Origin: Thermoflexia bacterium
Lineage (GTDB): Bacteria > Chloroflexota > Anaerolineae > B4-G1 > DUEL01
Assembly: GCA_011192125.1 (NCBI GenBank)
Contig: DUEL01000055.1
Location: 5,770 to 69,769 of the forward strand
DNA length: 64,000 nt
Direction of reading: 5' to 3'
Shown here: positions 15,650 through 37,659 of the stretch, in pieces
Layout of the letters: each line of letters begins with the position of its first letter
Position numbering within the stretch: position 1 is the stretch's first letter
Notes under the pieces: model-generated
Database searches by the model: none
The model's input: the letters and a program-made list of their open reading frames with translations, nothing else
What the model was told of the DNA's origin: nothing
Program-made: the position numbers and the translations under genes

Positions 15650-15657
15650 CTCCCCTC

Positions 15658-18510: not shown

Positions 18511-18585
18511 AACACCACAGAGAGGCACAGAAGATCTTTGTTCTTTATTTGAAACTCTGTGCTCTCTGCGCCTCTGTGGTGTCCC
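18511..18585 (+). repeat. Dispersed imperfect-palindromic intergenic element, copy A (3' core CTCTGCGCCTCTGTGGTG)
   Basis: caccacagagaggcacagaag...ctctgtgctctctgcgcctctgtggtg; followed by promoter-like TTGACA-17-TATCAT at 18591..18619. Confidence 0.55.
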
Positions 18586-18590
18586 CCGCG

Positions 18591-18619
18591 TTGACAACCG
18601 CTGGAGTCGGTGCTATCAT
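18591..18619 (+). promoter_or_regulatory. Sigma70-like promoter (TTGACA-17-TATCAT) for the TP-rich protein gene
   Basis: ttgaca accgctggagtcggtgc tatcat, 18 nt upstream of ATG 18637. Confidence 0.35.
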
Positions 18620-18636
18620 AGCCCCGGAGTTCGACG

Positions 18637-19137
18637 ATGAGAGAAACCCGTCCGATCCATCTTGCCCTGATCGCCATCATCCTGCTGACGCTGCCTTGCT
18701 ACTGCACGGGGTTTGCCCTTCTCTATGCTCTCTCCACCACTGCTCAACCCACCCCGACGCCGACGCCGACGGTCGCCACCGACACGCCTACTCCGCCCCC
18801 GGCCTCGCCAACCCATACCCTTGAGCCGACGCCGACCCAGTGGTTCCCGCCGACCGAGACCCCGACGCCCACGGATACGCCGACGCCGTCGGCCACGCCG
18901 ACGCTCACCCCCACCTCCACCGCCACGCCGACCCTCACGCCGACGATGACCTCCACGCCGACTCCGACCAACACGCCTACGCCCACCCTCACCGCTTCCC
19001 CGACCCCCACCGACACGTCCACTCCTACTCCTACCTCCACTTCGACCCCCACGCCGAGTCCCACGCTCACCGTCACTCCGACCCCCACCTTCACGCCCAC
19101 ACCGACCATCACCGCGACGGTCCCGATCACCCCTTGA
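18637..19137 (+). CDS. Membrane-anchored or secreted Thr/Pro-rich low-complexity protein (PT-linker/mucin-like)
   Basis: Hydrophobic N-terminus [17 protein letters not shown] then about 120 aa of (T/S)PT(P/D)T repeats; promoter-like and RBS signals upstream; antisense RG/GV-rich ORFs judged artefacts. Confidence 0.5.
18740..19130 (+). repeat. Tandem codon-level repeat (ACN-CCN-ACN-CCG units) encoding the TP-rich tract
   Basis: Visible periodicity ccgacgccgacgccgac / acgccgaccctcacgccgacg throughout the interval. Confidence 0.7.
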
Positions 19138-19163
19138 GCGCAATCGTAAGGAGAGACTTCGGT

Positions 19164-20213
19164 ATGGAGACGATCCCCCTGTTGAGGGAACTTTCGGAAA
19201 CCCCCGGTTTGGCTGGTCACGAAGGGCCGATCCGGGACCTCGTCCGGCGGTTGTGGTCCCCTCTGGTGGACGAACTTCGCGAGGACGGGCTAGGGAGCCT
19301 CATTGGCACGAAGCAGGGGACGGGCCCCGAGCCGCGTCCTCGGCTGATGCTGGCTGTCCATATGGACGAGATCGGCCTGCGGGTGACGGGGATCGAGAAA
19401 GGTTTCCTGCGTGTCACCCGCCTTGGCGGGACCGACCGGCGGGTACTTCCGGGAGCGGCTGTTGTGGTTCACGGCAAGAAGGACCTCCCTGGCGTCGTTG
19501 GGATGCGACCACCCCATGTGGTTCCCAAAGAGCAGCGGAAGAAGCCAGTCCCGTGGGAGGAACTGTTCGTGGATGTGGGGTTGTCGGAAGAGGAGATACG
19601 GAGGTGGGTCCGTGTGGGCGACCCCATTTCCTTTGACCGGGAATTGGTCGAACTGAAGAACGGCCTGGTAGCCGGAAAAGCGCTGGACAACCGGGCATCG
19701 GTAGCGGCGCTGACGCTGGCGCTGGAGGAGTTGAGCCGTACCCAGCACGCCTGGGACGTGGTGGCCGTGGCGACGGTGCAGGAGGAGGTAGGGCTGTACG
19801 GGGCGGCGACCAGCGCGTACGGTGTGAAGCCGGACCTGGCGGTGGCGGTGGATGTGACATTTGGACGGCAGCCCGGGGTGTCTGCGGATGACTCCTTCCC
19901 GCTGGGTGAGGGGCCGACCATCAGCGTGGGACCCAATTTCCACCCGCAAGTGGTGGGACGGCTCAAAGCCGCCGCCGAGGCCCACGAGATTCCTTACCAC
20001 ATCGAGCCCACCCCCGGCCGCAGCGGTACCGACGCCTGGGCGATCCAGGTGGCCCGGGAGGGGGTCCCAACCGGCCTGATCTCCATCCCGCTCCGGTACA
20101 TGCACCAGCCGGTGGAGACGGTGGCGGTGAAGGATGTGGAGCGGGCTGCGCGGTTGCTGGCGGCCTTTGCGGCGGGGCTGGAGGCGAGTTTCCGGCCCCA
20201 GTGGGAGGAGTGA
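19164..20213 (+). CDS. M42 family metallo-aminopeptidase (FrvX/YsdC/CelM-like), copy 1
   Basis: METIPLLRELSETPGLAGHEGPIRDLV N-terminus; HMDEIGL, GKALDNRASVAA, VQEEVGLYGA motifs; start at internal ATG 19164 (upstream ORF part is His/Asp-rich frame artefact overlapping the PT gene). Confidence 0.8.
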   Translation: METIPLLRELSETPGLAGHEGPIRDLVRRLWSPLVDELREDGLGSLIGTKQGTGPEPRPRLMLAVHMDEIGLRVTGIEKGFLRVTRLGGTDRRVLPGAAVVVHGKKDLPGVVGMRPPHVVPKEQRKKPVPWEELFVDVGLSEEEIRRWVRVGDPISFDRELVELKNGLVAGKALDNRASVAALTLALEELSRTQHAWDVVAVATVQEEVGLYGAATSAYGVKPDLAVAVDVTFGRQPGVSADDSFPLGEGPTISVGPNFHPQVVGRLKAAAEAHEIPYHIEPTPGRSGTDAWAIQVAREGVPTGLISIPLRYMHQPVETVAVKDVERAARLLAAFAAGLEASFRPQWEE

Positions 20214-20267
20214 CGTGTTGTGCGGTATGTGATGCGTCATACGTCACACGTCATACGTCATGCGTCA
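20211..20267. repeat. NRCGTCA heptamer tandem array (5 copies; reverse complement of TGACGYN) between M42 copies 1 and 2
   Basis: gATGCGTCATACGTCACACGTCATACGTCATGCGTCAag; one more TGACGTG overlaps the stop codon at 20211. Confidence 0.6.
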
Positions 20268-20290
20268 AGGGTGTCGCCCTGGAGCGGAAT

Positions 20291-21325
20291 ATGATCCTGA
20301 AAGAACTCTCAGAGGCTTTCGGCCCTTCTGGCAATGAGAGGCCGGTCCGGCAGATACTGCGGCAGGCTTTGGAGGGCCACGTTGATCGGATGTGGGTCGA
20401 TGCGCTGGGTAACCTGCATACGGAGAAGCAGGGGACCGGGGAGGACCGACTGCGGGTGCTGGTGACCGCCCATATGGACGAGATCGGCCTGATGGTCGTG
20501 GGCCACGACGACGACGGCACACTGAAGGTCCGAGCCATTGGCGGGATCGATCCCCGAGTCCTGCCCGGCGCGCAGGTCCTGGTGGGACCGGACCGGCTCC
20601 CCGGTGTGATCGGCCTCAAGCCGGTCCATCTGCTGAAAGAAGGGGAGGCGGACAAAGTTGCCACCATCGACCAGTTGCGGGTGGACATCGGGGCCAAGGG
20701 GAAGGAGGAGGCGAAGAATCTGGCCCCGGTGGGGGCGGTGGTGGTGTTCGCCACGCGGTTCCGTGAGTTAGGGCCGACGGTGATGGGTAAATCGTTCGAC
20801 GATCGGGTGGGGTGCGCGGTGCTGGTGGAGCTGCTTCGTGGGGAGCGGTTCCCTCACGATCTGCATGCCGTCTTCACCGTACAGGAGGAGGTAGGGCTGC
20901 GCGGCGCGCGGGTGGCGGCCTACGCCGCCTGTCCGGATTGCGGTTTCGCGCTGGAGGGGACCATCGCCGACGACCTGCCCAAGGAGAAGGACGTCAGCCC
21001 CACTACGGAGTTGGGGAAGGGTCCGGCGATCACGGTGATGGACCGGACCTTCATCGCCCATCGGGGATTGAACCGGCTGCTGGTGGAGACGGCAGAGGAG
21101 TTGGGCATTCCCTGCCAGTTCAAACAGCCCGGCATCGGCGGCACCGATTCGGGGGCGGTCCATCTGGCCCGGGAGGGGGTCCCCTGTGCCACTGTGGCTG
21201 TCCCCTGTCGCTACATCCACAGCCCGGCCAGCCTCCTCAGCCTTGCCGACTTTGAGAACACCGTGCGGTTGATGCGGGAGGCGCTGAACCGATTGAGGCG
21301 GGAACACGTTGGATCATCTTTTTGA
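20291..21325 (+). CDS. M42 family metallo-aminopeptidase, copy 2
   Basis: MILKELSEAFGPSGNERPVRQILRQ; HMDEIGLMVV, FDDRVGCAVL, VQEEVGLRGA. Confidence 0.8.
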   Translation: MILKELSEAFGPSGNERPVRQILRQALEGHVDRMWVDALGNLHTEKQGTGEDRLRVLVTAHMDEIGLMVVGHDDDGTLKVRAIGGIDPRVLPGAQVLVGPDRLPGVIGLKPVHLLKEGEADKVATIDQLRVDIGAKGKEEAKNLAPVGAVVVFATRFRELGPTVMGKSFDDRVGCAVLVELLRGERFPHDLHAVFTVQEEVGLRGARVAAYAACPDCGFALEGTIADDLPKEKDVSPTTELGKGPAITVMDRTFIAHRGLNRLLVETAEELGIPCQFKQPGIGGTDSGAVHLAREGVPCATVAVPCRYIHSPASLLSLADFENTVRLMREALNRLRREHVGSSF

Positions 21326-21384
21326 TCGCGGAGCGCGGAGGTTCTTAGCGAAATCTTCTCCGCGTCCTCTGCGTCTCTGCAGTG
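21326..21384 (+). repeat. Dispersed element, copy B (GCGGAG...TCCTCTGCGTCTCTGCAGTG)
   Basis: gcggagcgcggaggttcttagcgaaatcttctccgcgtcctctgcgtctctgcagtg, 5' of M42 copy 3. Confidence 0.5.
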
Positions 21385-21417
21385 AAATCGGAGCGCGAAC
21401 ACAGAGGGAGAGGAGAC

Positions 21418-22398
21418 GTGAGAGACCTGATTCGCAAACTGACTGAGACCTATGGCCCTTCGGGCTTTGAGGATCGTATCCGTGCGGTGATCCGGGAGGA
21501 GGTCGAGCCGCTGGCCGACGAGGTGCGGGTAACGCCGCTGGGCAGTCTGGTGGCGGTGAAGAAAGGCACCGGCGGGGGCCGGCGGATCATGCTGGCGGCC
21601 CATATGGACGAGATCGGTGTGATGGCCAGCCACGTGGACGACAAAGGGTTCCTCCGCTTCACTGCCATCGGTGGCGTCAACCCTCTTACCTGCGTCGGAG
21701 CGCGGGTGCAGTTCGAGGACGGGACGTTGGGGGTGATCGGCGTTGAGGGGAAGCGGGAGGATCGGACGAAGGCCCCCCGCCTTGATCAGTTGTACATCGA
21801 CGTGGGGGCGACGGGTAAGGATGACTGCCCTGTGCGGGTTGGGGACGCGGCCGTCTTCGTGCGGCCCTTCGCGGTCCGGGGCACGCGGCTCATCGCTAAG
21901 GCAATGGACGACCGGATCGGCTGTGCAGTGCTGATCGAGACCCTGCGGCGGTTGGAGGGGACGTCCAACGAGGTGTATTTCGTGTTCAGTGTACAGGAGG
22001 AGACCACCCTTTCCGGGGCGCGGACGGCAGCTTATGGGATCGAGCCCGATCTGGCGATTGCGGTGGACGTGACCGGGACGGGGGACACGCCGGAGGCACG
22101 GCCGATGGCGGTGGAGTTGGGCAAGGGTCCGGCGGTGAAGGTGCAGGACCGGGGGATGATCGCCCATCCGCTGGTGCGCGACCTGCTGGTGCGGGCGGCG
22201 GAAGCGGCGGGGGTGGCCTGCCAGATGGAGGTCCTGGAGCGCGGCACCACCGACGCGGCGGCGATGCAGTTGGTGCGGGCGGGTGTTCCCTCTGGCTGTC
22301 TTTCCATCCCTTGTCGCTACGTCCACACCCCCAGCGAGATGGTGGATGAGGGGGATGTGGAAGGGGCGGTGAAGGTATTGGTCGAAGCGGTCCGATGA
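21418..22398 (+). CDS. M42 family metallo-aminopeptidase, copy 3 (GTG start at 21418 preferred; ORF opens at GTG 21382)
   Basis: RDLIRKLTETYGPSGFEDRIRAVIREE aligns with N-termini of copies 1 and 2; HMDEIGVMAS, MDDRIGCAVL, VQEETTLSGA; GGGAG 7 nt upstream of 21418. Confidence 0.75.
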   Translation: MRDLIRKLTETYGPSGFEDRIRAVIREEVEPLADEVRVTPLGSLVAVKKGTGGGRRIMLAAHMDEIGVMASHVDDKGFLRFTAIGGVNPLTCVGARVQFEDGTLGVIGVEGKREDRTKAPRLDQLYIDVGATGKDDCPVRVGDAAVFVRPFAVRGTRLIAKAMDDRIGCAVLIETLRRLEGTSNEVYFVFSVQEETTLSGARTAAYGIEPDLAIAVDVTGTGDTPEARPMAVELGKGPAVKVQDRGMIAHPLVRDLLVRAAEAAGVACQMEVLERGTTDAAAMQLVRAGVPSGCLSIPCRYVHTPSEMVDEGDVEGAVKVLVEAVR

Positions 22399-23210
22399 GA
22401 TCGGTGGAGCGGTTGAGCGAACTCTGGCGGTATCGGGAACTGATCTACAACCTGGTCATCCGCGACCTCAAGGCGCGGTACAAGAACTCCATACTGGGCA
22501 TCGCGTGGTCGTGGCTCAACCCGCTGATGATGATGGTGGTCTACACCGTCGTCTTCAACGTCCTTGCGGGCCGCTCCGGGATTCCGGACTACCCGGTCTT
22601 TCTTCTCTCGGCGCTTCTGCCGTGGAACCTGTTTGCCAACTCGGTCGCTGAAGCGACCAACAGCGTCGTCCAATCCGCCCCGCTGATCAAGAAAGTGTAC
22701 TTTCCTCGGGAGGTTCTTCCCATTTCCGTCGTGCTGGGTAACGCAGTGCACTTCGTGATTAGCCTCCCGGTCTTCTTTGGGTTAGCCCTGGCGATGGGAC
22801 GGCCGATCAGTGGGTGGGTACTTTTGTTGCCTGTGACTCTCCTCGTTCAAATCGCGTTCACGCTGGGGGTCGGGCTCATCACGGCCACGTTGAACGTCTT
22901 TTATCGGGACACCTACCTGATAATGAACGTCCTGCTCACGGCGTGGTTTTTCCTGACCCCCATTTTCTATCCCATCACCACCGTCCCGGAGCAATACGTC
23001 CTCTGGGGGATTGTGTTCAACCCTCGGGTCTGGCTGCGCCGGCTGAACCCGATGGCTTCTATCATTGCCTCTTATCAGGACCTCCTCTACTGGGGCGCGC
23101 CCACCGGTTGGGACTTCTTCTTGCGGACAGCTGTGACGTCGGTGGTGGTCCTGATCGTGGGTTACCTGGTCTTCCTACGGTATAGTCCGAGGTTTGGGGA
23201 GGAGGTGTGA
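22395..23210 (+). CDS. wzm: ABC-2 type polysaccharide export permease (Wzm/KpsM/TagG family)
   Basis: ELIYNLVIRDLKARYKNSILGIAWSWLNPLMMM signature and 6 TM helices; 4-bp overlap with M42 copy 3. Confidence 0.8.
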   Translation: MRSVERLSELWRYRELIYNLVIRDLKARYKNSILGIAWSWLNPLMMMVVYTVVFNVLAGRSGIPDYPVFLLSALLPWNLFANSVAEATNSVVQSAPLIKKVYFPREVLPISVVLGNAVHFVISLPVFFGLALAMGRPISGWVLLLPVTLLVQIAFTLGVGLITATLNVFYRDTYLIMNVLLTAWFFLTPIFYPITTVPEQYVLWGIVFNPRVWLRRLNPMASIIASYQDLLYWGAPTGWDFFLRTAVTSVVVLIVGYLVFLRYSPRFGEEV

Positions 23211-23261
23211 AGAGCAAGGCCTCGCTCTAGATCTGCAAGAGTAGCTTTGGGTTGGGACGAG

Positions 23262-23759
23262 TCAGTCTGGTAGATCTATAGCAACCTCCCCCAAATCAGT
23301 GATTGCCCCCGCTTCAACGGTTACTAGAATATCCAGACCTGTTTCCGGATCAGTGACCACCCACGAATTCCCCGGAGTCCAAATCACCAGTGCATATGTA
23401 TCTGGCTCGACGTCTAGAAAGGCAAAATAACCGTTCTTGTCAGTTGTGGTGCTTGGGGATGAGCTTGGCAGCATTGTGATAATGTGGGACCCGGGGGCCC
23501 CCTCCAGGGGAGATAGTTCGCCTAGATAGATGACCATTTCCACCGCAGGCTCTCCGGAGATATAATCAACAAATCGGCCAGTGATTATCCCTTTGTCGAC
23601 TGGTGGATTAGGGAGTGGGGTCGGGCGGGTCCCCGTGGGAGTGGCAAGGGGGCTGACGTATAGGGGCGATTCGAAGGTCAACTCGGGAGTTGGTCTGACG
23701 TTGCAACCGGATAGACCTATGATTAGGATCGGTAAGATTGCGATGGTCAGACGTTTCAT
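23262..23759 (-). CDS. Lipoprotein with carboxypeptidase-regulatory-like beta-sandwich domain
   Basis: Lipobox ILIIGLSGC; DKNGYFAFLDVEPDTYALVIW pattern; start set at ATG 23759 with GGAGG RBS (upstream ORF part is read-through of the hairpin). Confidence 0.5.
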   Translation of the reverse strand: MKRLTIAILPILIIGLSGCNVRPTPELTFESPLYVSPLATPTGTRPTPLPNPPVDKGIITGRFVDYISGEPAVEMVIYLGELSPLEGAPGSHIITMLPSSSPSTTTDKNGYFAFLDVEPDTYALVIWTPGNSWVVTDPETGLDILVTVEAGAITDLGEVAIDLPD

Positions 23760-23778
23760 GCGTGTACCTCCATCTATT

Positions 23779-23820
23779 ACGCACTCGAAGGCCACCAACC
23801 CTGGTGGCCTTCGAGTGCGT
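23779..23820 (-). terminator. Perfect 19-bp inverted repeat with 4-nt loop between convergently ordered minus-strand genes; terminator or processing/regulatory hairpin
   Basis: acgcactcgaaggccacca-accc-tggtggccttcgagtgcgt; 18 nt after the stop of 23839..25167 and ending just before the RBS of 23262..23759; no U-tract follows. Confidence 0.4.
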
Positions 23821-23838
23821 TGTCAGTGAGATTGAACT

Positions 23839-25167
23839 TTACTGCCCGATACCGTTGTAGGCATAGAGCTGATCCATTATCTGATCACGCTCGGGTGCCT
23901 CGTTCATATCCTCGTTGACTACGCAGACGATGGGTTGTGTCGAGGTTATTGTGGCCGAGCCAATGAAACCATCGCTCAGCAGGGAGTCGGCGGGCTGGTA
24001 GAATAGGTGAATTCCGTTTACAGGGATTGATGGAGAGGTCGTTGTCCCGCTAATGCCGCCATAGGATATGGACATTGTGGCAGAGGCGGTGCCGATGTTC
24101 TGACAGGTGATGCTGGTGTTGTACTTGTAGTAACGCCGCATCACGATTGGAGCACGCACAGTGGTGCTGCCACTTGTGAAGCCGGAGTAGCTGGCCGCAC
24201 GGTTCTTGTCGGTTGACTCGTTTACCAGCACCGCAAGAGGTTGTCCGTTGGTGCTCTCGATCTTGGCACCGGTCAGCAAGCCGGTGGCTAGCCCTTCAAG
24301 CGGTGTGTAACGGCTGTCCGCTGCACCGGGGGGGATCGTCGTATACTTCACTGTGCCGTCGGAGTAGGTGATCTTTACATTCGCATCGGCTGTGCCCATG
24401 TTCTGGATCACAAGTGCGGTGTTGTAACCGTAGTAGTTGTTCATGATCACTGGCGCGTAGGCAACGGTGGAGCCGCTGGAGAAGGGGTTGTATGAGTAGA
24501 GCTGGTCATCATAGGGCCCCCTACCGTAAATGTTTACAACGGCTGCAATGTTCCCCGTGCCGATGATTTTGGCCGAGTAGAATTTGTTGTCGGCGAGCTG
24601 GGCTAGTCCTTCTTGTTCAAAAACGACAAAGCCGTTGGCCGGCACGTTGGTTCGAGTGTCCGTATAGACCGGGGTGGAATTACCGGGTTCATAGATCTCC
24701 AACGTGATATCGATCGTACTACCACTGGCGTTCTGTACAATCACGTTGGAGTAGTAATTGTAGTAATTGTCGTAGATACCGGGTGCGTACAAGGTAGTGG
24801 CGACCTCGCTGCCGCTTATACCACTGTAGCTTGCCCCGCTGTCCGGATCGCTGAAGTTTACGACGGCTGCTACTTCTTGGTCACAGCTGACCACACCAGC
24901 GTATTGTCCATCTGCTACTGTGGTGTCGCTCGGTACGTAGATGTAAGCACTTTCACCTGCGGGGATCGGCGAGAGGGCGCCACTGGAGTACACCTCGTTG
25001 CCGTTGGCGTCATAGAAGCTGAAGACGCAGTTTGCATCCTGAGTCCCCAGGTTCTGAATACGGAACGCTGTATTGAAGGGCCCTTCAGGTGCTGGCGCAT
25101 CGGCGTTGACAGCAACTGGAAGTGTCAGCAGGAGTATGATCATCACGAGGGGTATGTACTTTTTCAT
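23839..25167 (-). CDS. Secreted protein with four internal repeats of about 105 aa (beta-rich, Tyr/Asn/Ser/Thr-rich), possible cell-surface or S-layer-associated
   Basis: Signal peptide MKKYIPLVMIILLLTLPVAVNA; repeat cores NYYNYYSNVIVQNASGSTIDITLEIY / NNYYGYNTALVIQNMGTADANVKITY / RRYYKYNTSITCQNIGTASATMSISY; AGGAGG RBS. Confidence 0.55.
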   Translation of the reverse strand: MKKYIPLVMIILLLTLPVAVNADAPAPEGPFNTAFRIQNLGTQDANCVFSFYDANGNEVYSSGALSPIPAGESAYIYVPSDTTVADGQYAGVVSCDQEVAAVVNFSDPDSGASYSGISGSEVATTLYAPGIYDNYYNYYSNVIVQNASGSTIDITLEIYEPGNSTPVYTDTRTNVPANGFVVFEQEGLAQLADNKFYSAKIIGTGNIAAVVNIYGRGPYDDQLYSYNPFSSGSTVAYAPVIMNNYYGYNTALVIQNMGTADANVKITYSDGTVKYTTIPPGAADSRYTPLEGLATGLLTGAKIESTNGQPLAVLVNESTDKNRAASYSGFTSGSTTVRAPIVMRRYYKYNTSITCQNIGTASATMSISYGGISGTTTSPSIPVNGIHLFYQPADSLLSDGFIGSATITSTQPIVCVVNEDMNEAPERDQIMDQLYAYNGIGQ

Positions 25168-25255
25168 CTTTTAAACCTCCTTTGCCTGATAGGTCGCCCG
25201 CTTAGACGATTTGAAGATATCATAACGGAGGAATTAGCCCTCGGTCAATACTCCT

Positions 25256-26263
25256 TTAGGGGTAATGCTGTGTGTCTCGTTGATCACGTCCAAGTATTCG
25301 TGCTGTGATCCACATTAGCCCACCCCACACCAAGTCGCTAGCGATAAAGAGTACGCGTAGCAGCAGGGCCACCAGCAAAGCCCCGGCAATGGGCAGATTT
25401 GGACTCAGCAGGGCCGTTAATGTTAGTTCTCGGATCCCCATTCCTGCTGGTATGATTATTGAGGTTAAGAAACTGATTCCTCCTGTTAACGCCCATATGC
25501 GTACGGCATCACCCAGGGTTATTCCAGACGTCGGTGCCACGCTATGCGCCAGCAGGAACAGGATTAGCCCCCCGATGACATAAGCAACTGCATACAATCC
25601 CATCCATAGTGCTAGCTCCCTCCATTGTGGTGGATCAAGACTAGAGAGGTTCACAAGCACCTGTCGTAAGGGTCTGGGTAGCCGGGTTTCATCCTGCGTC
25701 GACCAGCGGAGTCTCAGACGTTGAAAGCCGGCCGCGATGAGCACGACAGCAAGGAAAGAGAAAGCGAGGCTTGCTAGCCATGAACTGTGGAGAGGAAGGC
25801 TCAGAGCACTATATATCACCATAGCTATCACTAGTAGCAGCAGCCATTCCAACCCGCTAGCGGCTAGGGTCACATGTGTTTCAATACCCTGCTCGTAGTA
25901 TCGCATCGCTCTTCCGGCCAAGTACCAAGGTGCACCAGGTAGGCGGCGCATAAGGTGGGTGTAGGCATAGATCTCGATGTCACGCCATCTACTCTCCTTT
26001 GGTCCCAGTCTTGCTATCATCATACTCCAGGTCAGGGCCTGGAGGCTTAACGATAGAGGATAGATGAAGAAGCCTCGTGCACAGGCAGCTAGATATGCTT
26101 GCCAATTATCGAATTGCTGCAACTCCTTGTATCCGTAAATGAGTAGGGCGAGGAGGAACCCGACAGAGAGAAAAAGCACTCCCGCGCTTATCCATCGTTG
26201 GAGGCGGGGGTTTTCCCGAAGTATGGACCACTTCTCCAGCAGATTGTGCAATTTTTCCCTCAT
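25256..26263 (-). CDS. Flippase-like polytopic membrane protein (UPF0104 / lysyl-PG-synthase TM-region family)
   Basis: 8 TM segments; family commonly paired with GT2 enzymes; ATGA overlap with methyltransferase upstream. Confidence 0.5.
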   Translation of the reverse strand: MREKLHNLLEKWSILRENPRLQRWISAGVLFLSVGFLLALLIYGYKELQQFDNWQAYLAACARGFFIYPLSLSLQALTWSMMIARLGPKESRWRDIEIYAYTHLMRRLPGAPWYLAGRAMRYYEQGIETHVTLAASGLEWLLLLVIAMVIYSALSLPLHSSWLASLAFSFLAVVLIAAGFQRLRLRWSTQDETRLPRPLRQVLVNLSSLDPPQWRELALWMGLYAVAYVIGGLILFLLAHSVAPTSGITLGDAVRIWALTGGISFLTSIIIPAGMGIRELTLTALLSPNLPIAGALLVALLLRVLFIASDLVWGGLMWITARILGRDQRDTQHYP

Positions 26264-27231
26264 AGTGTTCTGTCGCTATGCCGTTTCCGGGCAAACAGGG
26301 TGATGAGAGAGGAGAGGCGGGCACGGCTGATCATCCAGAACAGGGGTGCGAACGCTAGTCGGAGCGGCATAGTATGTCCTAACCGCAGTATGTGTCGGGG
26401 CCAGCGTGCTGGTGGGGGATACCGGTCCTCCAGGTAGAACCGTAGGCTCATCAAGAAGGCTGAGTAGCTCGTGGCAATGCACTGGAGTCCTTCCACTGTG
26501 AAGCCTAGTTCGGAGAGCGCAGCCGCCAGTGCCCGCCGGGGAAAGAGATAGAGGTGGCGGGGTAGATCCCAACCTAGCCAGAGAGGACCAAACCAGCGAG
26601 CTTCCGGGCTCTCCAGGTTGGGAATCCGGATGACTAGCAACCCCCCGTCTACTAAAAGGCGATGTATCTCTCTGAGGTCAGCCCACGGGGTATGTAGATG
26701 CTCGAGCACGTCCCATAGCGTGATGACGTCAAAAGACGCACTGGGCAAGCCAACCTGACCTAGCCGTCCGACGCGGACATCTAGTCCAAAGCGCTGTTGG
26801 GCATAGCCAGCGGCGGCAGGATCAGGTTCTATGCCGACCACCTCCCATCCAGCTAATTGCATTTCGTGAAGGAAGATGCCAGTGGCACAGCCGACGTCCA
26901 AGAGCCGTCCTTTGGGCTGCAAACGCTCAATTGACCGGCGTCGTTTGAGAATACCGTAGCGGCGGTCCCATCGACGCCACCATACGGGTTCGTCTTCTAT
27001 AGCCTGGATAAAGTTAATATAATCGGGGGGGTAGTAGAAACCGATGGTTTCGACGGTAGGGCGAGGGTTCTGGCGAATCCAACCACATTGCAGACACTCA
27101 ACTACCCGAAAGATGCCCGGCAGGCGATGTAACCGATCGGGTCCTTCGAATAGTTCTCGTTCCTCAGTCGATCCGCAGTGGTCGCATGGGACGAGCTCAG
27201 ACTCTACACCAGGCGGAAACCATGGGCTCAT
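26260..27231 (-). CDS. Class I SAM-dependent methyltransferase with N-terminal Cys4 zinc ribbon
   Basis: CDHCGS...CLQCG zinc ribbon; LLDVGCATGIFLHEM motif I; Methyltransf_11/23-like. Confidence 0.7.
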   Translation of the reverse strand: MSPWFPPGVESELVPCDHCGSTEERELFEGPDRLHRLPGIFRVVECLQCGWIRQNPRPTVETIGFYYPPDYINFIQAIEDEPVWWRRWDRRYGILKRRRSIERLQPKGRLLDVGCATGIFLHEMQLAGWEVVGIEPDPAAAGYAQQRFGLDVRVGRLGQVGLPSASFDVITLWDVLEHLHTPWADLREIHRLLVDGGLLVIRIPNLESPEARWFGPLWLGWDLPRHLYLFPRRALAAALSELGFTVEGLQCIATSYSAFLMSLRFYLEDRYPPPARWPRHILRLGHTMPLRLAFAPLFWMISRARLSSLITLFARKRHSDRTL

Positions 27232-29444
27232 TTTTCGTCCGTCGGAGGAGAAGGCATCACGATCTCATCCGCTGCGGGGATCGGACCAAGCGGCTTGGTC
27301 AATCCTTCGCGCACACCTGCCCAGAAATACTTGAGCATGCGCCCGTTCCCCTTGACCAGCTCTCGGAGCATAAGGAACCCTAGATGAACAAAGAGGGAGA
27401 GGAGGGCGGGTCGGCCATGTCGGCGGTAGAACCGCGTACTACTTTCTCCCCAGACTTTCCAGAACAAGGCCTCTTTCCCGGTCTGTCTGGTGCTTTTGGA
27501 TACTTTATGCCACATCCGTGCGTCGGGCACGAAGAGGATTCGCAGACCGTGGGCGCGTACGCGGTGTGAGAAGTCCCAATCGTCGAAGAAGAAGAAATAG
27601 CCCGGGTCAAACAGACCCGCCTTTTCAAAAGCACGGCGGTGAATCAGTAACCCACAACTCAGAGCGTATTCCAGATAGAAGGGTTTATCAAAGGCTGCGC
27701 TAGGTCGGTTTTGTCCTACGATGATGTGAGCAGGCGGGAAAGCGCGGTACCGACCACCCGCCGCCCAGATCACCTCAGGATCATCATAGTATAGGACTTT
27801 AGGCATTAGGATACCTACATTCGGGTCGGCCTCTGCTGCCTCTACCAGGCGGCGTACCATTTGGGGGTCTACGACAGTATCGTTGTTCAGCATCAGGATG
27901 TATTCTGCCCCTGCCTGCAGGGCGTAGCTGAAGCCGACGTCGTAACCCCACGGGACACCTAAATTGCGCCCTGTTTCAATGAGGTGCACGTTTGGAAACT
28001 CAACCCGGATTCTCTCCGGTGTGCCATCAGATGATCCGTTATCTACGACTACGATGGATAAGTTCTCGTAGTCGCTCTTATGAAGCGACTCCAAGCATTC
28101 TCGCGTGTCGTCATAGTTGTTGAAGGCAAGGATCACCGCGTAGACGGCGGGTACTCCGGATGATTCTTTCATAGGCGTTCTCTCCACAAAAACATGTGAT
28201 AGACCTGGGGCCAACCTAGTGGTTAGAGCCAGCGCGTTGGCATAGATGTCGTCCAATTCCAGGTGCTGGAACTCAGCTGATCTGCCCAGTAGATGCAGGT
28301 TGCTGTAACGCCCTAGGATCTCTCTGGCATAGGCAAGATGATCAGTATAGGTAAGATCGTAAAGTGCATAGCCGTACTCCTCATGGAGCACCTTTGTATC
28401 GAGGACCTCTCCGGGGCGCACCAGACCACAGCGAATCACATCGTCGACGACGCGTTGTACTATCTCTGGGTGTTTGCTAGTGACTTCTGCGCACAGAACA
28501 GTACGATCACGTGGTTGGTCAGCCGCGCTAAGATTCTTGAATTCGACCAGCCGATTGATAGCGAAGTCCTTGTCGATGAAGTAAATCCAGTGGTTGTCCG
28601 AGACCAACGGCCGATCAACGAGCAAGTAAACGAAGTCTACGCTTTGATAGGCCAATGGAAAGGTGTGACCAAGCATCTCTCCCAAGACAGTTAACGGGAG
28701 TGTGGAGATAATTTGATCGAAGGTCTCTTCTCTGCGTTTCCCTTCATGCTCATAGATGACTGTCTCGATATGGTCCCCATAGGTCTCAAGAGCACGAACT
28801 GGGGAGTTCAGCCGCACGTGATCACGAATGTCTCGATAGACTCGTTCTAAGATGGCGCCGAAGCCACCATGTATGGGGTAGTAGAAGTAGCCAAAATGTT
28901 TTTTGGAACTTTCACGTACGAGGTCCAGGGGGCCGGAGATGCGTACCTTGCGACGTGCCCAATCCACAGAGATCTGATCGCCGGTTAGGCCGAACATTTT
29001 TTCGGTATAAGGGCGGAAGAAGAACTGATTAAGTGCGGCACCGTATCTACGATTCACGAAGTCATCAAAAGAGTTCTCGGGAGTATGACGCGGGCGGAAA
29101 AGATAACTTAACGCGATGTTCGCTGTAGTGACAGGAAAGTATCGGTATAAGATTTCGACGATGTTGACTGGATCACGTATCCATTTGCCTGCCAGGTACA
29201 ATCGACTGCGGCGAATGTGACGACCCATCGGCACAAGTGAGAGTAAGTGACGGAGCACCGTCTCATCTTGAGTAAAGAGCCGATGGGCACCAAGGTCGCA
29301 AGTGAAATTATGCCATCGGAAGCTGCGAGAGATACCACCGACATATGGGCGCGCCTCAAAGACGGTGACATCCACGTCACGCTGGTGTAGCAACCACGCG
29401 GCAAACAGTCCAGCAGGTCCGGCTCCCAATATACCCACTTTCAT
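27228..29444 (-). CDS. Fusion protein: N-terminal FAD/NAD(P)-binding oxidoreductase (UDP-galactopyranose mutase/amine-oxidase-like) + C-terminal GT2 glycosyltransferase
   Basis: MKVGILGAGPAGLFAAWLL dinucleotide motif; C-terminal VYAVILAFNNYDDTRECLESL...VVDNGSSDGT, NNDT, DDWDFSHR GT2 motifs. Confidence 0.7.
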   Translation of the reverse strand: MKVGILGAGPAGLFAAWLLHQRDVDVTVFEARPYVGGISRSFRWHNFTCDLGAHRLFTQDETVLRHLLSLVPMGRHIRRSRLYLAGKWIRDPVNIVEILYRYFPVTTANIALSYLFRPRHTPENSFDDFVNRRYGAALNQFFFRPYTEKMFGLTGDQISVDWARRKVRISGPLDLVRESSKKHFGYFYYPIHGGFGAILERVYRDIRDHVRLNSPVRALETYGDHIETVIYEHEGKRREETFDQIISTLPLTVLGEMLGHTFPLAYQSVDFVYLLVDRPLVSDNHWIYFIDKDFAINRLVEFKNLSAADQPRDRTVLCAEVTSKHPEIVQRVVDDVIRCGLVRPGEVLDTKVLHEEYGYALYDLTYTDHLAYAREILGRYSNLHLLGRSAEFQHLELDDIYANALALTTRLAPGLSHVFVERTPMKESSGVPAVYAVILAFNNYDDTRECLESLHKSDYENLSIVVVDNGSSDGTPERIRVEFPNVHLIETGRNLGVPWGYDVGFSYALQAGAEYILMLNNDTVVDPQMVRRLVEAAEADPNVGILMPKVLYYDDPEVIWAAGGRYRAFPPAHIIVGQNRPSAAFDKPFYLEYALSCGLLIHRRAFEKAGLFDPGYFFFFDDWDFSHRVRAHGLRILFVPDARMWHKVSKSTRQTGKEALFWKVWGESSTRFYRRHGRPALLSLFVHLGFLMLRELVKGNGRMLKYFWAGVREGLTKPLGPIPAADEIVMPSPPTDEK

Positions 29445-29630
29445 CTCGATTCGCTCGTCTTGCTTTCCCGAGTGACTTTAGGACGAAAACGGTATCAAAT
29501 CCGTTCCCATTTTAAGGTGCCTGCTCTGTCGATGTAATTGAAGAAGCCATCTCCATACCCGACATCAAGTATTGGGCTAGTCTGGGTGTGGGTGAGAACA
29601 AGCCGGCGATAATAGGCAGCAAAGTGAGGA

Positions 29631-30830
29631 TTATGCTCTCTCATACCCATAGATACGAGTGAAATCGTGCACTAGTCTATCCCAATAGAACCGCTCTCGG
29701 ATCGCCAGTGCTTCGGCGGAGAGGCGATCTCTGAGTGGTTCATCCCTCAAGAGAGCTATCATAGCCTCGGAGAGCGCAACTGGGTCCCCAGGCGGAATTA
29801 GCAAACCGCCTCCGTGTGCTAATATCGTGGCTCGGTCTCCCACGTCTCCAGTGATTACCGGGGTGCCTGCTGCCAGGCTCTCCACCACCTTGAGGGGATA
29901 GCGACCATGTTCTGCTAATGTTCCTCGCACGGGATCAACCGAGACTTCGGCCAAGCGGTAATAGAGAGGCACTTCATCGGGGGGAACTCGGCCTAAGAAG
30001 AGCACTCTCCTTAGCCCTAATGCTTGGGCTTGGCGTTGTAGCTTTTCGTAGTCTTCTCCGCCCCCCACCAATATTAATATCGCTCGGCCCTCAGCGCGCT
30101 GGACGAGTGCAAACGCTTCCAGTAGCAAGTCTACAGCATGATTGGCCAAACTGAGGCTTCCTACATAGACTATGACCTTCCGATCCTCCAATCCCAGGCG
30201 GCGGCGGGCTCTCTCGATGTCCACGTCCTTTATAGCGGAAAACCGCGTACGATCTACGCCGTTGGGAACATAGACGATGCGGTCCCTTTGGCATCCTAGC
30301 TGCACCAAGCGTTCAGCCATAAAACGGGTATTAACGGTGACACCAGCCGTAATCCGAGGGAGGGAATTCTCAAAAAAGGCCACTATTCTGCGTTGCCAAC
30401 TCCCGCTGAAGCGGTTGGAGGCAGCTTCGTAATCGTCGCAGTCGAGATAAACTGGCTTTCCTAGCAAGAGGGGTGGCAAGAGAGCCAGTCCGTTCATCGG
30501 ATGAGGTTTGCAGATGTGATATACATCGGTTGGTGTTAACAAAGCGGCCTTCGTCAGCCGTAAGGTGGCTAAGGTAGAGACCAGTATTAGCTGGATTGGC
30601 CCAAAGTAGAGTTTTTGATTGCCTACTTTCCGTACGTGCATCTGCCCGACGTAGTGAACCCTGACACCTCCCTCCACATATTCTTGCTGTTGCAGCGTTT
30701 GAAAGTTGTGGTGCAGTGCCAAGAGGGTCACCTCGTGCCCGAGCCGCACTAACTCCTTGGACAGGGGCCAGTAGCGTCCCAATCCGGACGGACTTTCGAG
30801 GCTCTGCGTGAGCAAGAAAGTGATTCTCAA
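29631..30830 (-). CDS. Glycosyltransferase family 4
   Basis: MRITFLLTQSLESPSGLGRY GT4 N-domain; C-terminal GGGE...E GT4 motif region. Confidence 0.75.
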   Translation of the reverse strand: MRITFLLTQSLESPSGLGRYWPLSKELVRLGHEVTLLALHHNFQTLQQQEYVEGGVRVHYVGQMHVRKVGNQKLYFGPIQLILVSTLATLRLTKAALLTPTDVYHICKPHPMNGLALLPPLLLGKPVYLDCDDYEAASNRFSGSWQRRIVAFFENSLPRITAGVTVNTRFMAERLVQLGCQRDRIVYVPNGVDRTRFSAIKDVDIERARRRLGLEDRKVIVYVGSLSLANHAVDLLLEAFALVQRAEGRAILILVGGGEDYEKLQRQAQALGLRRVLFLGRVPPDEVPLYYRLAEVSVDPVRGTLAEHGRYPLKVVESLAAGTPVITGDVGDRATILAHGGGLLIPPGDPVALSEAMIALLRDEPLRDRLSAEALAIRERFYWDRLVHDFTRIYGYERA

Positions 30831-31927
30831 GCCTGCCTCCTCGTCATTAGGGCCACTAGATCATCCCACGAGGATGGAGGTCGACCGTTGTCCCCCCTTT
30901 CTGGTGGTGAGTCCTGGGTGAAGAAGCGCACGATTGCCTTTGCAAGCGTCTGGCTATCGGCGGGTAACGGGACGTCTTTGGAGTCCAGTACCTTCTGGGT
31001 GGTTATCACCGGTTTCCCCAGGCCTCTGGCCAACTCGACTACGCCGCTTCCAGTCGCTTGCCGGTAAGGTGCCACCAGTACGTCTGCTGCGGAGAAGAAT
31101 AAAGGTATTTCCTCGTTAGGGATGTAGCGATCGTAAAGGAATACCGAGTCGGCGATATTCAGATCTTCTATCAGCCTCAGGTAATCCTCCTTATCTTCCC
31201 AGAACTCCCCTGCTACCACGAGAATCACGTTTCCTAGTTGCTCCCGGACACTGGGCAGTGCGCGCAGGAGGTCTCGTAGCCCCTTGTATTTTCTCACAAT
31301 TCCAAAGAAGAGCAAGACAGGGGTCTCTATGGGTAATCCAAGCCGTTTACGTGCTTCATCTTTGGGAATTCGCTCTCCCGCGAACATATCGTACATGGGA
31401 TGAGGAACCACCGCGATGGGCACATTTGGTAACAGTCTCTGCAGCCGTTCTCTTTCTTCCTTTGATTGCACTACGAACCGTGTTCCTAGTCGCAACACAC
31501 ATCTGGCAGCCAATGCATCCCACCAGCGGGCCTCGTGGGGGAGTACGTTGTGGCAGATATAGACCAATGGTCTTCGCAACAGAGCGCGCTGCAGGGTTCC
31601 TAAGACAATCCACGCAGGTGCCCAGAAACTCGTCCACCATTGGAGGACCAACACGTCAGGCTGGTAACGACAAATGCGCCAGAAGGTCACCAGCCAGCTC
31701 AGCGGATTCAAAGAGTCAATCCAATACCGGGCATCCTCGACCAGAAGCGGCTTTTTACTCGGATCCTTGTCACTATGGCCAGGGAACAGCCAGCGAGGGT
31801 ATTGCCTTTTGAAGGAAATCATCAACACCTCGTGGCCTCGCTTGCGGAGCGCTCGGTAGAGCATCGTCGTGTAATGAGCGATCCCACCACGGTAAGGATA
31901 GACCGGTCCGACGAGCACTACTTTCAT
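30827..31927 (-). CDS. Glycosyltransferase family 4-like (GT1 superfamily)
   Basis: MKVVLVGPVYPYRGGIAHYT N-terminus; GT-B C-terminal half; 4-bp overlap with downstream GT4. Confidence 0.7.
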   Translation of the reverse strand: MKVVLVGPVYPYRGGIAHYTTMLYRALRKRGHEVLMISFKRQYPRWLFPGHSDKDPSKKPLLVEDARYWIDSLNPLSWLVTFWRICRYQPDVLVLQWWTSFWAPAWIVLGTLQRALLRRPLVYICHNVLPHEARWWDALAARCVLRLGTRFVVQSKEERERLQRLLPNVPIAVVPHPMYDMFAGERIPKDEARKRLGLPIETPVLLFFGIVRKYKGLRDLLRALPSVREQLGNVILVVAGEFWEDKEDYLRLIEDLNIADSVFLYDRYIPNEEIPLFFSAADVLVAPYRQATGSGVVELARGLGKPVITTQKVLDSKDVPLPADSQTLAKAIVRFFTQDSPPERGDNGRPPSSWDDLVALMTRRQA

Positions 31928-32021
31928 CTCTTATACCCCGGGTTCCGAGACAGGATCCATCGCTTCGCTTACGGCCCAAGGAGGTAGACTTGGAATGGCC
32001 CAATGGCCTCTCGCTTAAGCA

Positions 32022-32145: not shown

Positions 32146-34590
32146 CTATTGCCCCGATATCTCTCTGAGCTCGAATATCCACACCAAATCCTGATGATAT
32201 ATCGGCCGAAAGTGCGCGCTTTGTAGAAGCAGTTTCGGATCTAGGACGGAGGGGCCGTTGTAGTTGACCCGCCCCCGTTGCTGACCAATGTAGACGTGGG
32301 TAATGCCTCGCTCCTGCAACACAGCCAGGGTCTCAGGGTGATTAATCCCTGCTTCCTCGATCTGGGCCTTCAGTTCGTTGATCCACTGCCGGTAGTCGTC
32401 CTGGAGCCCCTGCTCCGTTCCATAGTTCAACGGCGGTGCCGTGTTGGCACGTTTGCCCAAAAGTGGAATCCACCAACCAGCATCAGAACCTGCAATCACG
32501 CTTCCCCCATAAGCAAAGAAAGAATTAACCAGAAACCGAGCATCCTCCGGCGTATTCTCCCGGATCCATGCCATCGCTCGAAGGTCGGGGCGGGTGACCA
32601 TCGCATGGCGGTCCACCTGTAGGTCTCCCATACGTCGCCAAGCACCCGTCAGGCCTATTCCCACCAGTAACACCACCGCCAGTAACCTGAGCCATTTCCG
32701 CGCCGTCCACTGAACCATCACTTCTCCTAGCAGCCACCCTATCGATACACCTGCCGGGATATACACCGCGATGAACAGCGCAAAGTTGCTGATAGCCCCG
32801 CTGCCTGGGAGGCGGAGCCAATCTGGGTTGGTTGCAATCAGAAGGAGGAACCACCACAGGGAGATCAGCAGGACGCCTCGTCGTCGTCTCCACAGTCCCG
32901 CGGCGATCGCCACCATCAGGAGCAGCCATCCCACGGGGGCCATAAAGCGAGTGATGTCGCCGATCGCGTTGTACTGACGGGTAAACGACGTAAGATGATC
33001 GGGAGGGGTGGTCATCTGCCGTGCGAAGTTTTTGAGGATCCTTCCTTGAAAGATATGGGAAAACCAGGGCAAGAATAGCACGGCCGCCCCGCTTCCTGCT
33101 CCGCTTATCCGCAGCAGTATGTGATACCAGTTCTGTCGTCTGAGGGAAATCACAATCCAGGCAACGACAAATATGATGTAAAAGATCAAGACTCGATAGT
33201 GAGTCAGCGCCAGTCCCCCTGCGACAACCCAGACCAACGCAGTCAATTTCCAGTTCCATCGAGGGGCCTCAAACAGTGCCCAACTCAACACCACTGCCGC
33301 GGGCAGGATCGTCTGCCCGGTCAGTTGAGTGTACCGCCCCCAGTTCACGTAGAACATCGGCATCGGCAGGAGCAGGCCCGCCACCACGACTGCTCCTACT
33401 CCCGCCCAACGGTTTTGGCTCATCCGGACCGCCAGAGGGTAAAGCGCGAACACCGCCAATCCGTTGAGAATCTGCCCGACCCAAATGACGGCCTGCACCA
33501 CGTCTATCCCAGTTACCCAATGAAAGGTCGCCACAGCCGCGTGGAAACCGAAATGGTAGGTGAAACTCCGAAGTTCGGCATAGGGCTCCCACGAGTCGAA
33601 CAGCCCTTTGTTATCCACCAATAACTGGGCGATCATTGTGTGCTGGTAAGAATCCCCCCACATCGGCGCGTCCAGCGTGCGCACCACCAGCAACCGCACG
33701 CCGAAGACCAGCGCCAGAAGGATCACCAAGGCCAGGTCGGGCCAGAGGGCCTCGGAACGGGCCCACCGTCGCAGGGCTTCCCATCCCTCCCGGGGTCGCC
33801 AGTCCCGATAACGCCAGGCCAGCGTTGCCACCCCGCCCGCCACAGGCAGCCAAGCATAGAGTGGCCCCAGGTGCAGCCCCACCAGGTCGGTCCAGAGCAG
33901 CAGCAGCGGGTACAAAGCCAGGCTGGTCCCCGCGGCAAGCCCCAGCCGCTCAGCCCAGGAGAGTCGTGCGTCCGGCCAGAGCCAGACCAGCAGCGCCCAG
34001 CCTGGCACGATGTAGAGCAGCCCTGCCACCGCCAGCAGCCCTAATCCCTGTACCGTAGCCCGTGCCAGGTCTACGATCATCCATCGGGGATCGTAAACTA
34101 GTCGAAAAGCCATCTGGACATCCAGGGGCTGGTGATCCCGGTAGAGCGCTCCGTCCAGATATGCGTCGCCCGCCGCTCCACCAATGGCTACACTCCCTTC
34201 ACCTTCCATCTCTATGAAGGCGTAGTAATATCGACCGTGGGCATCGGGCAGGGGAGGGAAAGAGAACCGGTAGAAACCGGCCTCCGTCAACTGATCTAGC
34301 GGGAGAGTGCTCGCGGCCAGGTCGTCCGTCGCCTCCGGGTCGGCGCGGAGGTGAATCCGGAGTTCACCTCGCGCCCCCGGCTCCGGTGCCAGCCACACCT
34401 CCACCCCGTTCAGCCCTCCGTGGCGGGCGACGAAGGTCTGCCCTACCGTGTGGCCCGGTTCCAAGAGGGTCGTTACCTCGGGAACGACGTTGACCTGGTC
34501 GCGGTCCACAAAGTTGGAGCACCCGGTAAGTAGAAGCAACATCCCCAGGACAAGCAGCAGGACACTCAACGGACTCCGGCGTCTCTTCAT
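32146..34590 (-). CDS. Large polytopic membrane protein with lipoprotein-type signal and extracytoplasmic domains (GT-C-like glycosyltransferase or polymerase candidate)
   Basis: 814 aa; N-terminal LLLTGCSNF lipobox; more than 12 TM helices in the middle; stop overlaps start of downstream DPM1-like GT2. Confidence 0.45.
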
Positions 34591-35561
34591 TCTCCCACTG
34601 CCTCCTGTTTGCTGCTTTCTACTTCTTCGAATTCCATCCGCCGCACTCGGTAGAGGATCTCCTCCAGCATCTTCCGGTTCAGCCGGACCAACTCGGCCAT
34701 CAGGCCGATCAGGCAGACCTGGAAGCCCACGATGGTGAGGATGGCCGCCAGGATGAGGGATTGGACGTGCCCCATGCCGCGGCCGACTAGGTAGAAATAC
34801 AGGAAGCGGAGCCCTAACGCTACTCCCCCCGCGATGAGTATCCCTCCGATCGTCGTGAAAACCCGCAGCGGACGGTACATCGTGTAAAAACGAAGGATGG
34901 TGACGGCGGAGAGGGCGAGGAAGGAAGGGATGCTCCGGATGAGACGGGAGGGTCGGGTCTGGGGATTGGTTCGCACGGGGACGTACACCACTTTCATTCG
35001 ACGAGCCCCGGCCTGGATCAGAGTCTCCAGGGTGTAGGTGTACTCGCTGAGGACGGTGAGGCGGAGCGCGGCCTCACGGGTGAAGGCCCGGAAGCCGCTC
35101 GTGGCATCGGGGATGGGGATGCCGGCTGCCCGCCCCACTACCCAACTTCCCCACTGTTGGAGCAACCGCTTGATAGGGGAGAAGTGCTCCAGGGCGGCTA
35201 CTCCCCGGTCACCAACGACGATGTCGGCCCGGCCTTCCAGGAGCGGTTGGACCAGGCGGACGATGTCCTCTCCGCGGTATTGGTTGTCGGCGTCGGTGTT
35301 GACGATGATATCGGCCCCGAGCCGCAGCGCCGTCTCTAAGCCCACGGTGAAGGCGGCCGCCAGTCCCTGGTTCTGTTTCAGGCGGACGATGTGATCTACC
35401 CCCAGTTCCTCCGCTACCTGAGCGGTGCGATCGGTGGACCCATCGTCCACCACCAGGACCTCGATCTCGTCTACCCCAGGGATGGAGCGGGGCAGATCGC
35501 GGAGGGTCTGGGGAAGGGTGGCCTCCTCATTATAAGCAGGGATCTGGATGATGAGTTTCAC
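34587..35561 (-). CDS. GT2 polyprenol-phosphate glycosyltransferase (DPM1/GtrB/ArnC-like) with C-terminal TM anchor
   Basis: [16 protein letters not shown]...[17 protein letters not shown] motif, two C-terminal TM helices. Confidence 0.75.
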
Positions 35562-37629: not shown

Positions 37630-37659
37630 CGTGACTGCCTCGTGAGTCGCCTGTTGTCT

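Follow-up and report, generated by a model that had tools for sequence, protein, structure and literature searches.

We analyze a 64,000-nucleotide stretch of the genome of a Thermoflexia bacterium (phylum Chloroflexota; GenBank contig DUEL01000055.1, positions 5,770 to 69,769; hereafter "the window"), in which a single gene encodes a 738-amino-acid (aa) protein that joins a flavoenzyme domain of the UDP-galactopyranose mutase (UGM) superfamily to a family 2 glycosyltransferase (GT2) domain. Our evidence consists of the fold of the fusion, its superfamily membership, the conservation of its core residues, its recurrence in other genomes, and the synteny around it. From this evidence we propose, with a probability of about 55%, that the fusion is a bifunctional enzyme: a mutase that would convert a nucleoside diphosphate (NDP)-sugar from the pyranose to the furanose form, combined with a furanosyltransferase that would act on a lipid-linked acceptor. 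Each half is of a known kind; the novelty lies in joining them, in a substrate pocket specific to the clade, and in a conserved module that also includes a methyltransferase and a flippase-like protein.

Architecture and superfamily membership of the fusion

The fusion is encoded on the minus strand, and the database record identical to it is named "MAG TPA: glycosyltransferase [Thermoflexia bacterium]". Its parts are as follows (pLDDT, predicted local distance difference test; FAD, flavin adenine dinucleotide).

27228-29444 (minus strand): whole fusion open reading frame (ORF), UGM-like flavoenzyme plus GT2, 738 aa, ATG to TGA
28203-29444 (minus strand): residues 1-414, FAD-binding domain of the UGM superfamily
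28152-28202 (minus strand): residues 415-431, disordered interdomain linker, LSHVFVERTPMKESSGV; pLDDT below 50 at model residues 414-426 (model numbers run one below those of the protein)
27294-28151 (minus strand): residues 432-717, GT2 (GT-A) domain and C-terminal helices

A first-pass annotation, made from the nucleotide letters and their reading frames, had described a 738-aa protein coupling a UGM-like FAD-binding fold to a GT2 domain, and the ORF, the Pfam matches, and an AlphaFold2 model confirm it. The top Pfam match by E-value is Amino_oxidase (residues 11-285, 1e-21); the others are NAD_binding_8 at residues 5-68, Glycos_transf_2 at residues 436-563 (3.3e-21), and GLF (PF03275) at residues 142-324, which passes its gathering threshold of 26.3 bits by a narrow margin (30.4 bits) and is also present in most fusion homologues according to their precomputed annotation. 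AlphaFold2, given an alignment of 45 homologues, predicts two folded domains at a mean pLDDT of 81.9, with low-confidence stretches in the linker near residue 420 and in a flap near residues 173-184.

The N-terminal domain has the three-domain UGM fold, with FAD, helical, and beta-sheet domains, and its closest sequence matches in the PDB are UDP-galactopyranose mutases (2.6e-16 for the single sequence against Trypanosoma cruzi UGM, 4dsg). With a family profile the match to 4dsg improves to 7.7e-24 and extends over residues 3-415, whereas the match to protoporphyrinogen oxidase (PPOX) reaches 2.9e-10 and its alignment ends at residue 258. Against Escherichia coli K-12 Glf the profile gives 98.7% probability (E = 1.6e-15) across Glf residues 3-367 of 367. 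The first-pass annotation had named UGM/Glf and PPOX as the folds to compare, and it is UGM that aligns at full length. The fusion is 18-23% identical to known UGMs (EC 5.4.99.9; 4DSG, Aspergillus fumigatus 3UTE, Deinococcus radiodurans 3HDQ, and E. coli K-12 Glf). The solved UGMs matched, of 363-517 residues, are single-domain chains, whereas the window protein is fused to a transferase.

Conservation of the catalytic core

An exhaustive search with the N-terminal domain returned 6228 representatives at E ≤ 0.001 and 329 at E ≤ 1e-30, and 125 near-full-length ones were aligned to the family model. Twelve of them form a "close" clade, made up of the fusion and its nearest stand-alone relatives; the other 113 form a "far" group at 26-37% identity, which is PRK07208-like and mostly 430-540 aa long. 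Within the fusion clade, the GxGxxG motif of FAD binding (G7/G9/G12) and the acidic residue at the end of beta-2 (E30) are invariant. Other motifs in residues 1-414 are GAH at 52-54, PYTEK at 145-149, the K166/R168 flap, W286, Y288, NRLVEFKN at 297-304 (also aligned with YRATIFSN), and Y359, and residues 387-399 read GRSAEFQHLELDD. The residues that align with the UGM core are listed below.

H54 (in GAH): T. cruzi H62, A. fumigatus H63, E. coli H56
Y146-T147-E148-K149: E. coli Glf Y151-T152-E153-K154
W286 and Y288: T. cruzi W315 and Y317, A. fumigatus W315 and Y317
R298 (in NRLVEFKN): T. cruzi R327, A. fumigatus R327, E. coli R278 (in TRIIEHK)
Y359: T. cruzi Y395, A. fumigatus Y419, E. coli Y311
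G387-R388 (GR motif, flavin-side Arg): T. cruzi R423, A. fumigatus R447, E. coli R340

Roles in diphosphate binding, in transition-state stabilization, and in the His loop have been described for the core residues of T. cruzi UGM (PMC4192007). All of the residues listed are invariant in 45 fusion homologues and near-universal in the 125 wider-family representatives: H54, itself invariant in the 45 fusions, is present in 124 of the 125, and R298, which aligns with the diphosphate-contacting catalytic Arg, in all 125. The first-pass annotation would have given up its reading had the N-terminal domain lacked UGM active-site residues, and these are found in it. Judging from the sequence, the mutase mechanism is probably retained.

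The C-terminal domain matches PF00535 above its cut-off and has a GT-A fold, with motifs at D468, NND 520-522, DDWD 621-624, and WHK 645-647. Its top structural match is GlfT2, the galactofuranosyltransferase of Mycobacterium tuberculosis (PDB 4FIX), to which it is 16% identical and whose own N-terminal domain is replaced by the flavoenzyme in the fusion. The putative metal motif, at the DxD-type position, reads NND in the fusion as opposed to all-Asp in GlfT2; D522 and D468 are invariant. Among curated NCBIfam models the domain matches the rhamnosyltransferase TIGR01556 (68.3 bits), MftF (56 bits), and GlfT1 NF050113 (41.4 bits), all below their cut-offs, and no model of a polyprenyl-phosphate sugar synthase (PpgS, ArnC, AglJ) is among its NCBIfam matches.

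Recurrence of the fusion and related fusions

A look for the same fusion in other genomes, as the first-pass annotation had suggested, finds a full or near-full copy in 35 loci (L004-L038), taken from one genome per species, all of them metagenome-assembled genomes. The loci carry the labels Anaerolineae/Anaerolineales, Chloroflexia/Chloroflexaceae/Chloroflexus, Caldilineaceae, Promineifilaceae, Bellilinea, Brevefilum, and Chloroflexota, and one bin is labeled Acidobacteria. A word-indexed search gave 430 matches, with at least 120 homologues at 51-100% identity that have both the flavoenzyme and the GT2 Pfam domains; all but one of the 120 matches listed are full length. At 50% clustering the fusion falls into about four clusters. 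Public names for these homologues include "glycosyltransferase", "FAD-dependent oxidoreductase", and "GT2 family glycosyltransferase/protoporphyrinogen oxidase".

Outside the fusion, the flavoenzyme clade occurs alone, in proteins of 420-458 aa, and as the C-terminal part of P0127 (1019 aa), a cellulose-synthase-like GT2. The PRK07208-type proteins (NF005545-NF005549, about 430-540 aa) belong to the same superfamily, and some of them, too, are fused to glycan enzymes. In one distant relative (P0190, 770 aa) a PRK07208-type flavoenzyme is joined to an RmlD-type dTDP-4-dehydrorhamnose reductase, and in another (P0236, 837 aa) to a flippase-like PF03706 domain; both keep the full UGM residue set. 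P0190 resembles what we take to be the reductase and mutase pair that makes dTDP-fucofuranose. Given two independent fusions of the clade to GT2 domains, together with a relative fused to a nucleotide-sugar reductase, the family would be one that works on glycosyl donors. The P0190 fusion also hints that the large PRK07208 group, whose members are called "hypothetical protein" in NCBIfam, consists of NDP-sugar mutases. Neither a fusion of this kind nor a characterized PRK07208-type protein turned up in the literature searched, the coverage of which was incomplete. A tblastn search with E. coli Glf, covering the window and the sequence up to 10 kb from the fusion in related loci, found no separate canonical glf; the only matches were the N-terminal domains of the fusions themselves.

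The conserved gene module

We counted homologues of the window genes detected across 37 related loci. The genes that accompany the fusion are these (SAM, S-adenosylmethionine).

25256-26263 (minus strand): 335-aa polytopic membrane protein, MprF-flippase-domain-like (UPF0104/PplT), ATGA overlap with the methyltransferase stop
26260-27231 (minus strand): 323-aa class I SAM methyltransferase (Methyltransf_23), start overlapping the fusion stop as ATGA
29631-30830 (minus strand): GT4 glycosyltransferase directly upstream of the fusion, 22 of 37 loci
30827-31927 (minus strand): second GT4 glycosyltransferase, 12 of 37 loci
32146-34590 (minus strand): 814-aa polytopic membrane protein, DUF6541 in its related-locus counterparts, 19 of 37 loci
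34587-35561 (minus strand): GT2 of the polyprenyl-phosphate sugar synthase type (AglJ/PpgS/ArnC-like; TIGR04182 1.3e-33, PpgS 4e-23), 16 of 37 loci

The operon of fusion, methyltransferase, and flippase-like protein described in the first-pass annotation is borne out by the ATGA overlaps at both joints. A homologue of the methyltransferase occurs in 30 of the 37 loci, mostly on the same strand and directly downstream of the fusion, as the gene tables also show, and one of the 335-aa membrane protein in at least 14 (at the tblastn threshold used). The latter has no Pfam match, and by sequence it matches P0236 too weakly to count by itself (BLASTP E = 0.002; hhalign probability 1.3%); its flippase-like assignment therefore rests on structure prediction, which gives it the fold of the MprF flippase domain and PF03706 relatives. 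Unlike MprF, it has no lysyl-phosphatidylglycerol synthase domain. Fusions of PplT/UPF0104 domains to glycosyltransferases have been reported, Chloroflexi included (bioRxiv 10.1101/2022.03.11.483950). The 814-aa protein is GT-C-like by topology only and has no sequence match in the PDB.

Proposed function and the substrate pocket

By analogy with UGM, N5 of the reduced flavin would attack C1 of an NDP-pyranose and expel the NDP, which R298, Y359, H394, and the K166/R168 flap would hold while the sugar ring opens, closes again in the furanose form, and bonds to the NDP anew. The fused GlfT2-like GT2 domain, with D622 as its putative base and H646 as a putative metal ligand, would transfer the furanose at once to an acceptor linked to a membrane lipid at the cytoplasmic face. 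The translationally coupled methyltransferase would then O-methylate the product, and the MprF-flippase-like protein would move it across the membrane. A fusion makes sense here, since at equilibrium the furanose form of the nucleotide sugar is in the minority, as reported for a related mutase (PMC12369002). This is in substance the interpretation of the first-pass annotation, in which an isomerized nucleotide sugar such as a furanose passes directly to transfer, and we judge it supported. What we infer are the mutase activity, the furanose product, the passing of the donor from one domain to the other, the lipid-linked nature of the acceptor, and what the methyltransferase and the flippase-like protein do.

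A number of results weigh against this proposal, beginning with the curated models. The fusion scores 49.8 bits on the UGM equivalog TIGR00031, the cut-off of which is 303.75. The top-scoring curated models are the PRK07208-type NF005545-NF005549 (cut-offs 380-587 bits), the best of them being NF005548 at 185.5 bits versus 389. Since these scores lie far below the equivalog cut-offs, we regard the N-terminal domain as a member of the UGM superfamily and not as a Glf orthologue; from its residues it appears as a sister clade of the PRK07208 type with a different pocket. Residue N201 of T. cruzi UGM has no alignable equivalent in the fusion.

At five substrate-contact positions the close clade departs from all characterized UGMs and from residues that the PRK07208-type proteins keep (Y, W, R, Y, and N, in the order that follows; Af, Tc, and Ec denote the A. 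fumigatus, T. cruzi, and E. coli enzymes). The Af Y104 position is an invariant D91, as opposed to Y in 91 of the 113 far representatives; that of Af W167/Ec W156 is an invariant F151 (W in 100 of 113); and that of the mobile-flap Arg (Af R182/Tc R176/Ec R170) is an invariant K166 (R in 98 of 113), followed two residues later by an invariant, clade-specific R168. The second diphosphate Tyr (Af Y453/Tc Y429/Ec Y346) is replaced by an invariant H394 (Y in 96 of 113), whereas the first is kept as the invariant Y359, and the Af N457/Tc N433 position holds E or D396, E396 in the fusion (N in 77 of 113). We take Af Y104 and W167 to belong to the uridine/ribose pocket, and by alignment the five changes would touch three subsites: nucleoside, diphosphate, and sugar. 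With D91, F151, K166, H394, and E396 the enzyme is therefore probably not a plain UDP-galactopyranose mutase, and the pocket of the clade as a whole probably argues against plain UDP-galactopyranose as its substrate.

Known enzymes show that a UGM scaffold can serve other sugars or nucleotides by the same FADH2-dependent mechanism. Examples are Campylobacter jejuni UNGM (4MO2), which serves UDP-GalNAc, and HS41.17, which is a CDP-fucopyranose/CDP-6-deoxy-altropyranose mutase (PMC12369002). Both stand alone and are of the short bacterial type, unlike the fusion; HS41.17 was compared by description only. A more specific picture, which we offer tentatively and consider possible at best, is that the clade serves a donor other than UDP-galactose (another nucleotide, another sugar, or both), as a pyranose-furanose mutase or some related flavin-N5 enzyme, and makes a furanoside new to Chloroflexota envelopes. 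Together with the methyltransferase and the MprF-like flippase, the fusion would then form an undescribed module for the assembly, methylation, and export of a furanosyl lipid-linked glycan.

Further points of this kind concern the GT2 domain. The invariant D621/D622 and H646 fall opposite the DD and WH motifs of GlfT2 in a fragment alignment (GlfT2 "WDDADYGLRAAEHG...LPGAAIWH", fusion "FDDWDFSHRVRAHG...VPDARMWH") that is weak by itself, at E = 0.25, and ppGalNAc-T7 carries a motif similar to the GlfT2-type one. In GlfT2 the catalytic base is presumably D372 and the metal ligand H396, which fits a +20 offset in the 4fix chain. The GlfT1 score compares with a cut-off of 330 bits. Among the nearest stand-alone GT2 homologues (L039-L079, 28-43% identity), none has an adjoining mutase gene, save for one distant match in L047, so they lend no support to a furanose-specific GT2 lineage.

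Alternative explanations

The first alternative, which we think unlikely, keeps the mutase and changes the fate of its product: the GT2 domain would load the furanose onto polyprenyl phosphate, the MprF-like protein would flip it, and an extracytoplasmic GT-C-type protein, e.g., the 814-aa one, would use it as a donor. This scheme is modeled on the Gtr, Arn, and decaprenyl-phosphate-arabinofuranose pathways, and it would account for the translational coupling of the flippase-like partner, the co-conservation of the 814-aa protein in 19 of 37 loci, the polytopic membrane proteins of 513, 680, and 688 aa that adjoin clade members, and the flippase-like domain fused to P0236. However, the GT2 domain matches models and structures of the rhamnosyltransferase/GlfT1/GlfT2 type and not those of PpgS, ArnC, or AglJ, and a separate synthase of that type (34587-35561) already adjoins the 814-aa protein. 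The neighboring membrane proteins, moreover, have no detected homology to each other or to PDB entries.

The pocket itself raises another alternative, that the UGM scaffold carries out a different chemistry on a sugar nucleotide, such as an oxidation or some other flavin-N5-dependent rearrangement, and that the GT2 domain transfers the modified sugar. The remodeling is coherent and invariant in the clade, bringing a His and acidic side chains close to the flavin and sugar sites (D91, H394, E/D396, D398), whereas the Y, Y, and N of UGM persist there in the wider family, and the top Pfam match by E-value is, as noted, Amino_oxidase. We nonetheless consider this improbable, as the residues most tied to the mutase mechanism show no change (the His loop, R298, Y359, and R388) and the UDP-GalNAc and CDP-6-deoxyhexose variants of UGM keep that reaction (PMC12369002 for CDP).

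A third reading makes the N-terminal domain a dehydrogenase of the PPOX or CrtI/CrtD type that acts on a carotenoid or polyprenol, with the GT2 domain glycosylating the lipid to give, e.g., a carotenoid glycoside. We reject it as very improbable: matches to CrtD, CrtI, HpnE, and PPOX models span only residues 1-67, that is, the dinucleotide-binding motif, and UGM-specific motifs outside it are conserved. The E-value of the UGM profile match is 14 orders of magnitude better than that for PPOX, and the conserved neighbors are all glycan genes, with no carotenoid genes seen among them. Finally, we give hardly any credence to a catalytically dead flavoenzyme domain that serves a plain GT2 as a sugar-nucleotide binder or regulator, for although NCBI annotates the protein as a glycosyltransferase only and several canonical substrate contacts are changed, the FAD motif and catalytic core are invariant in 45 homologues down to 51% identity and the same clade exists as stand-alone proteins of about 440 aa.

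Other genes near the fusion and its relatives

The following features lie in the window close to the fusion.

23839-25167 (minus strand): 442-aa secreted protein with a signal peptide and no Pfam family, homologue in 29 of 37 loci
29498-29650 (minus strand): 51-codon ORF in the 186 nt that separate the upstream GT4 gene from the fusion, MGMREHNPHFAAYYRRLVLTHTQTSPILDVGYGDGFFNYIDRAGTLKWERI followed by a stop

The 442-aa protein has recurring "NYY.YN" motifs and five N-x-S/T sequons, and a BLAST self-comparison found no internal repeats in it; it could be a glycan-linked surface protein and possibly the glycan carrier. The 51-codon ORF contains "ILDVGYGDGFF", which looks like motif I of SAM methyltransferases, and on that likeness it may be the remnant of a lost methyltransferase gene; no homologue of it was found in the related loci.

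In several other Chloroflexota loci a protein of about 280-465 aa that combines GerE (a LuxR-type helix-turn-helix) with a Kelch beta-propeller is encoded within a few kb of the fusion. It may be a regulator of the module, and no counterpart was found in the window. In addition, close-clade flavoenzymes that are stand-alone or differently fused adjoin membrane proteins with no Pfam family. BLAST detected no similarity among these membrane proteins or to those of the window; they are possibly novel membrane glycosyltransferases with the flavoenzyme product as their substrate. The positions within each locus are given here.

L001 17109-18440, L003 16829-18223, L082 16615-17907, L084 17977-18816: GerE/Kelch protein
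L085 68-2134: 688-aa membrane protein
L086 9401-10942: 513-aa membrane protein
L087 9318-11360: 680-aa membrane protein

The wider glycan region of the window

The window is one large envelope-glycan region, which also holds a Bac_transf initiating transferase, a UDP-GlcNAc 2-epimerase, many GT2 and GT4 genes, and the genes below.

1523-2845 (plus strand): sulfatase
22395-23210 (plus strand): ABC-2 permease
45190-48144 (plus strand): WsaF-like (double) transferase
48172-49224 (minus strand): sulfotransferase
50654-51886 (minus strand): Wzt ATPase with a Wzt_C carbohydrate-binding domain
26260-27231, 36871-37701, 41684-42493: three methyltransferases, the first being that of the fusion operon

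The ABC-2 permease and the Wzt ATPase lie 28 kb apart, on either side of the glycosyltransferase block. The gene content suggests that the product of the region is an ABC-transporter-dependent glycan whose end is capped and possibly sulfated. G+C content is 65-69% at 14000-22000, where two M42 aminopeptidase genes lie, versus 52-58% at 22000-32000, in the glycan block with the fusion; glycan clusters are often compositionally distinct.

Conclusions

Furanose sugars are, to our knowledge, absent from mammals, and the pathway that makes them is under study as a drug target. How furanoses reach their transferases is a real question, given that the nucleotide-bound furanose is the minor form at equilibrium, and a natural mutase-transferase fusion, if that is what this protein is, would provide a single polypeptide for a direct test of donor hand-over. 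The clade-specific pocket points to a further substrate specificity in the UGM superfamily, and re-annotation could extend to hundreds of Chloroflexota proteins now called "glycosyltransferase", "FAD-dependent oxidoreductase", or "protoporphyrinogen oxidase/GT2". Little is known about the chemistry of Chloroflexota envelopes, and the conserved module around the fusion is a concrete entry point to it.

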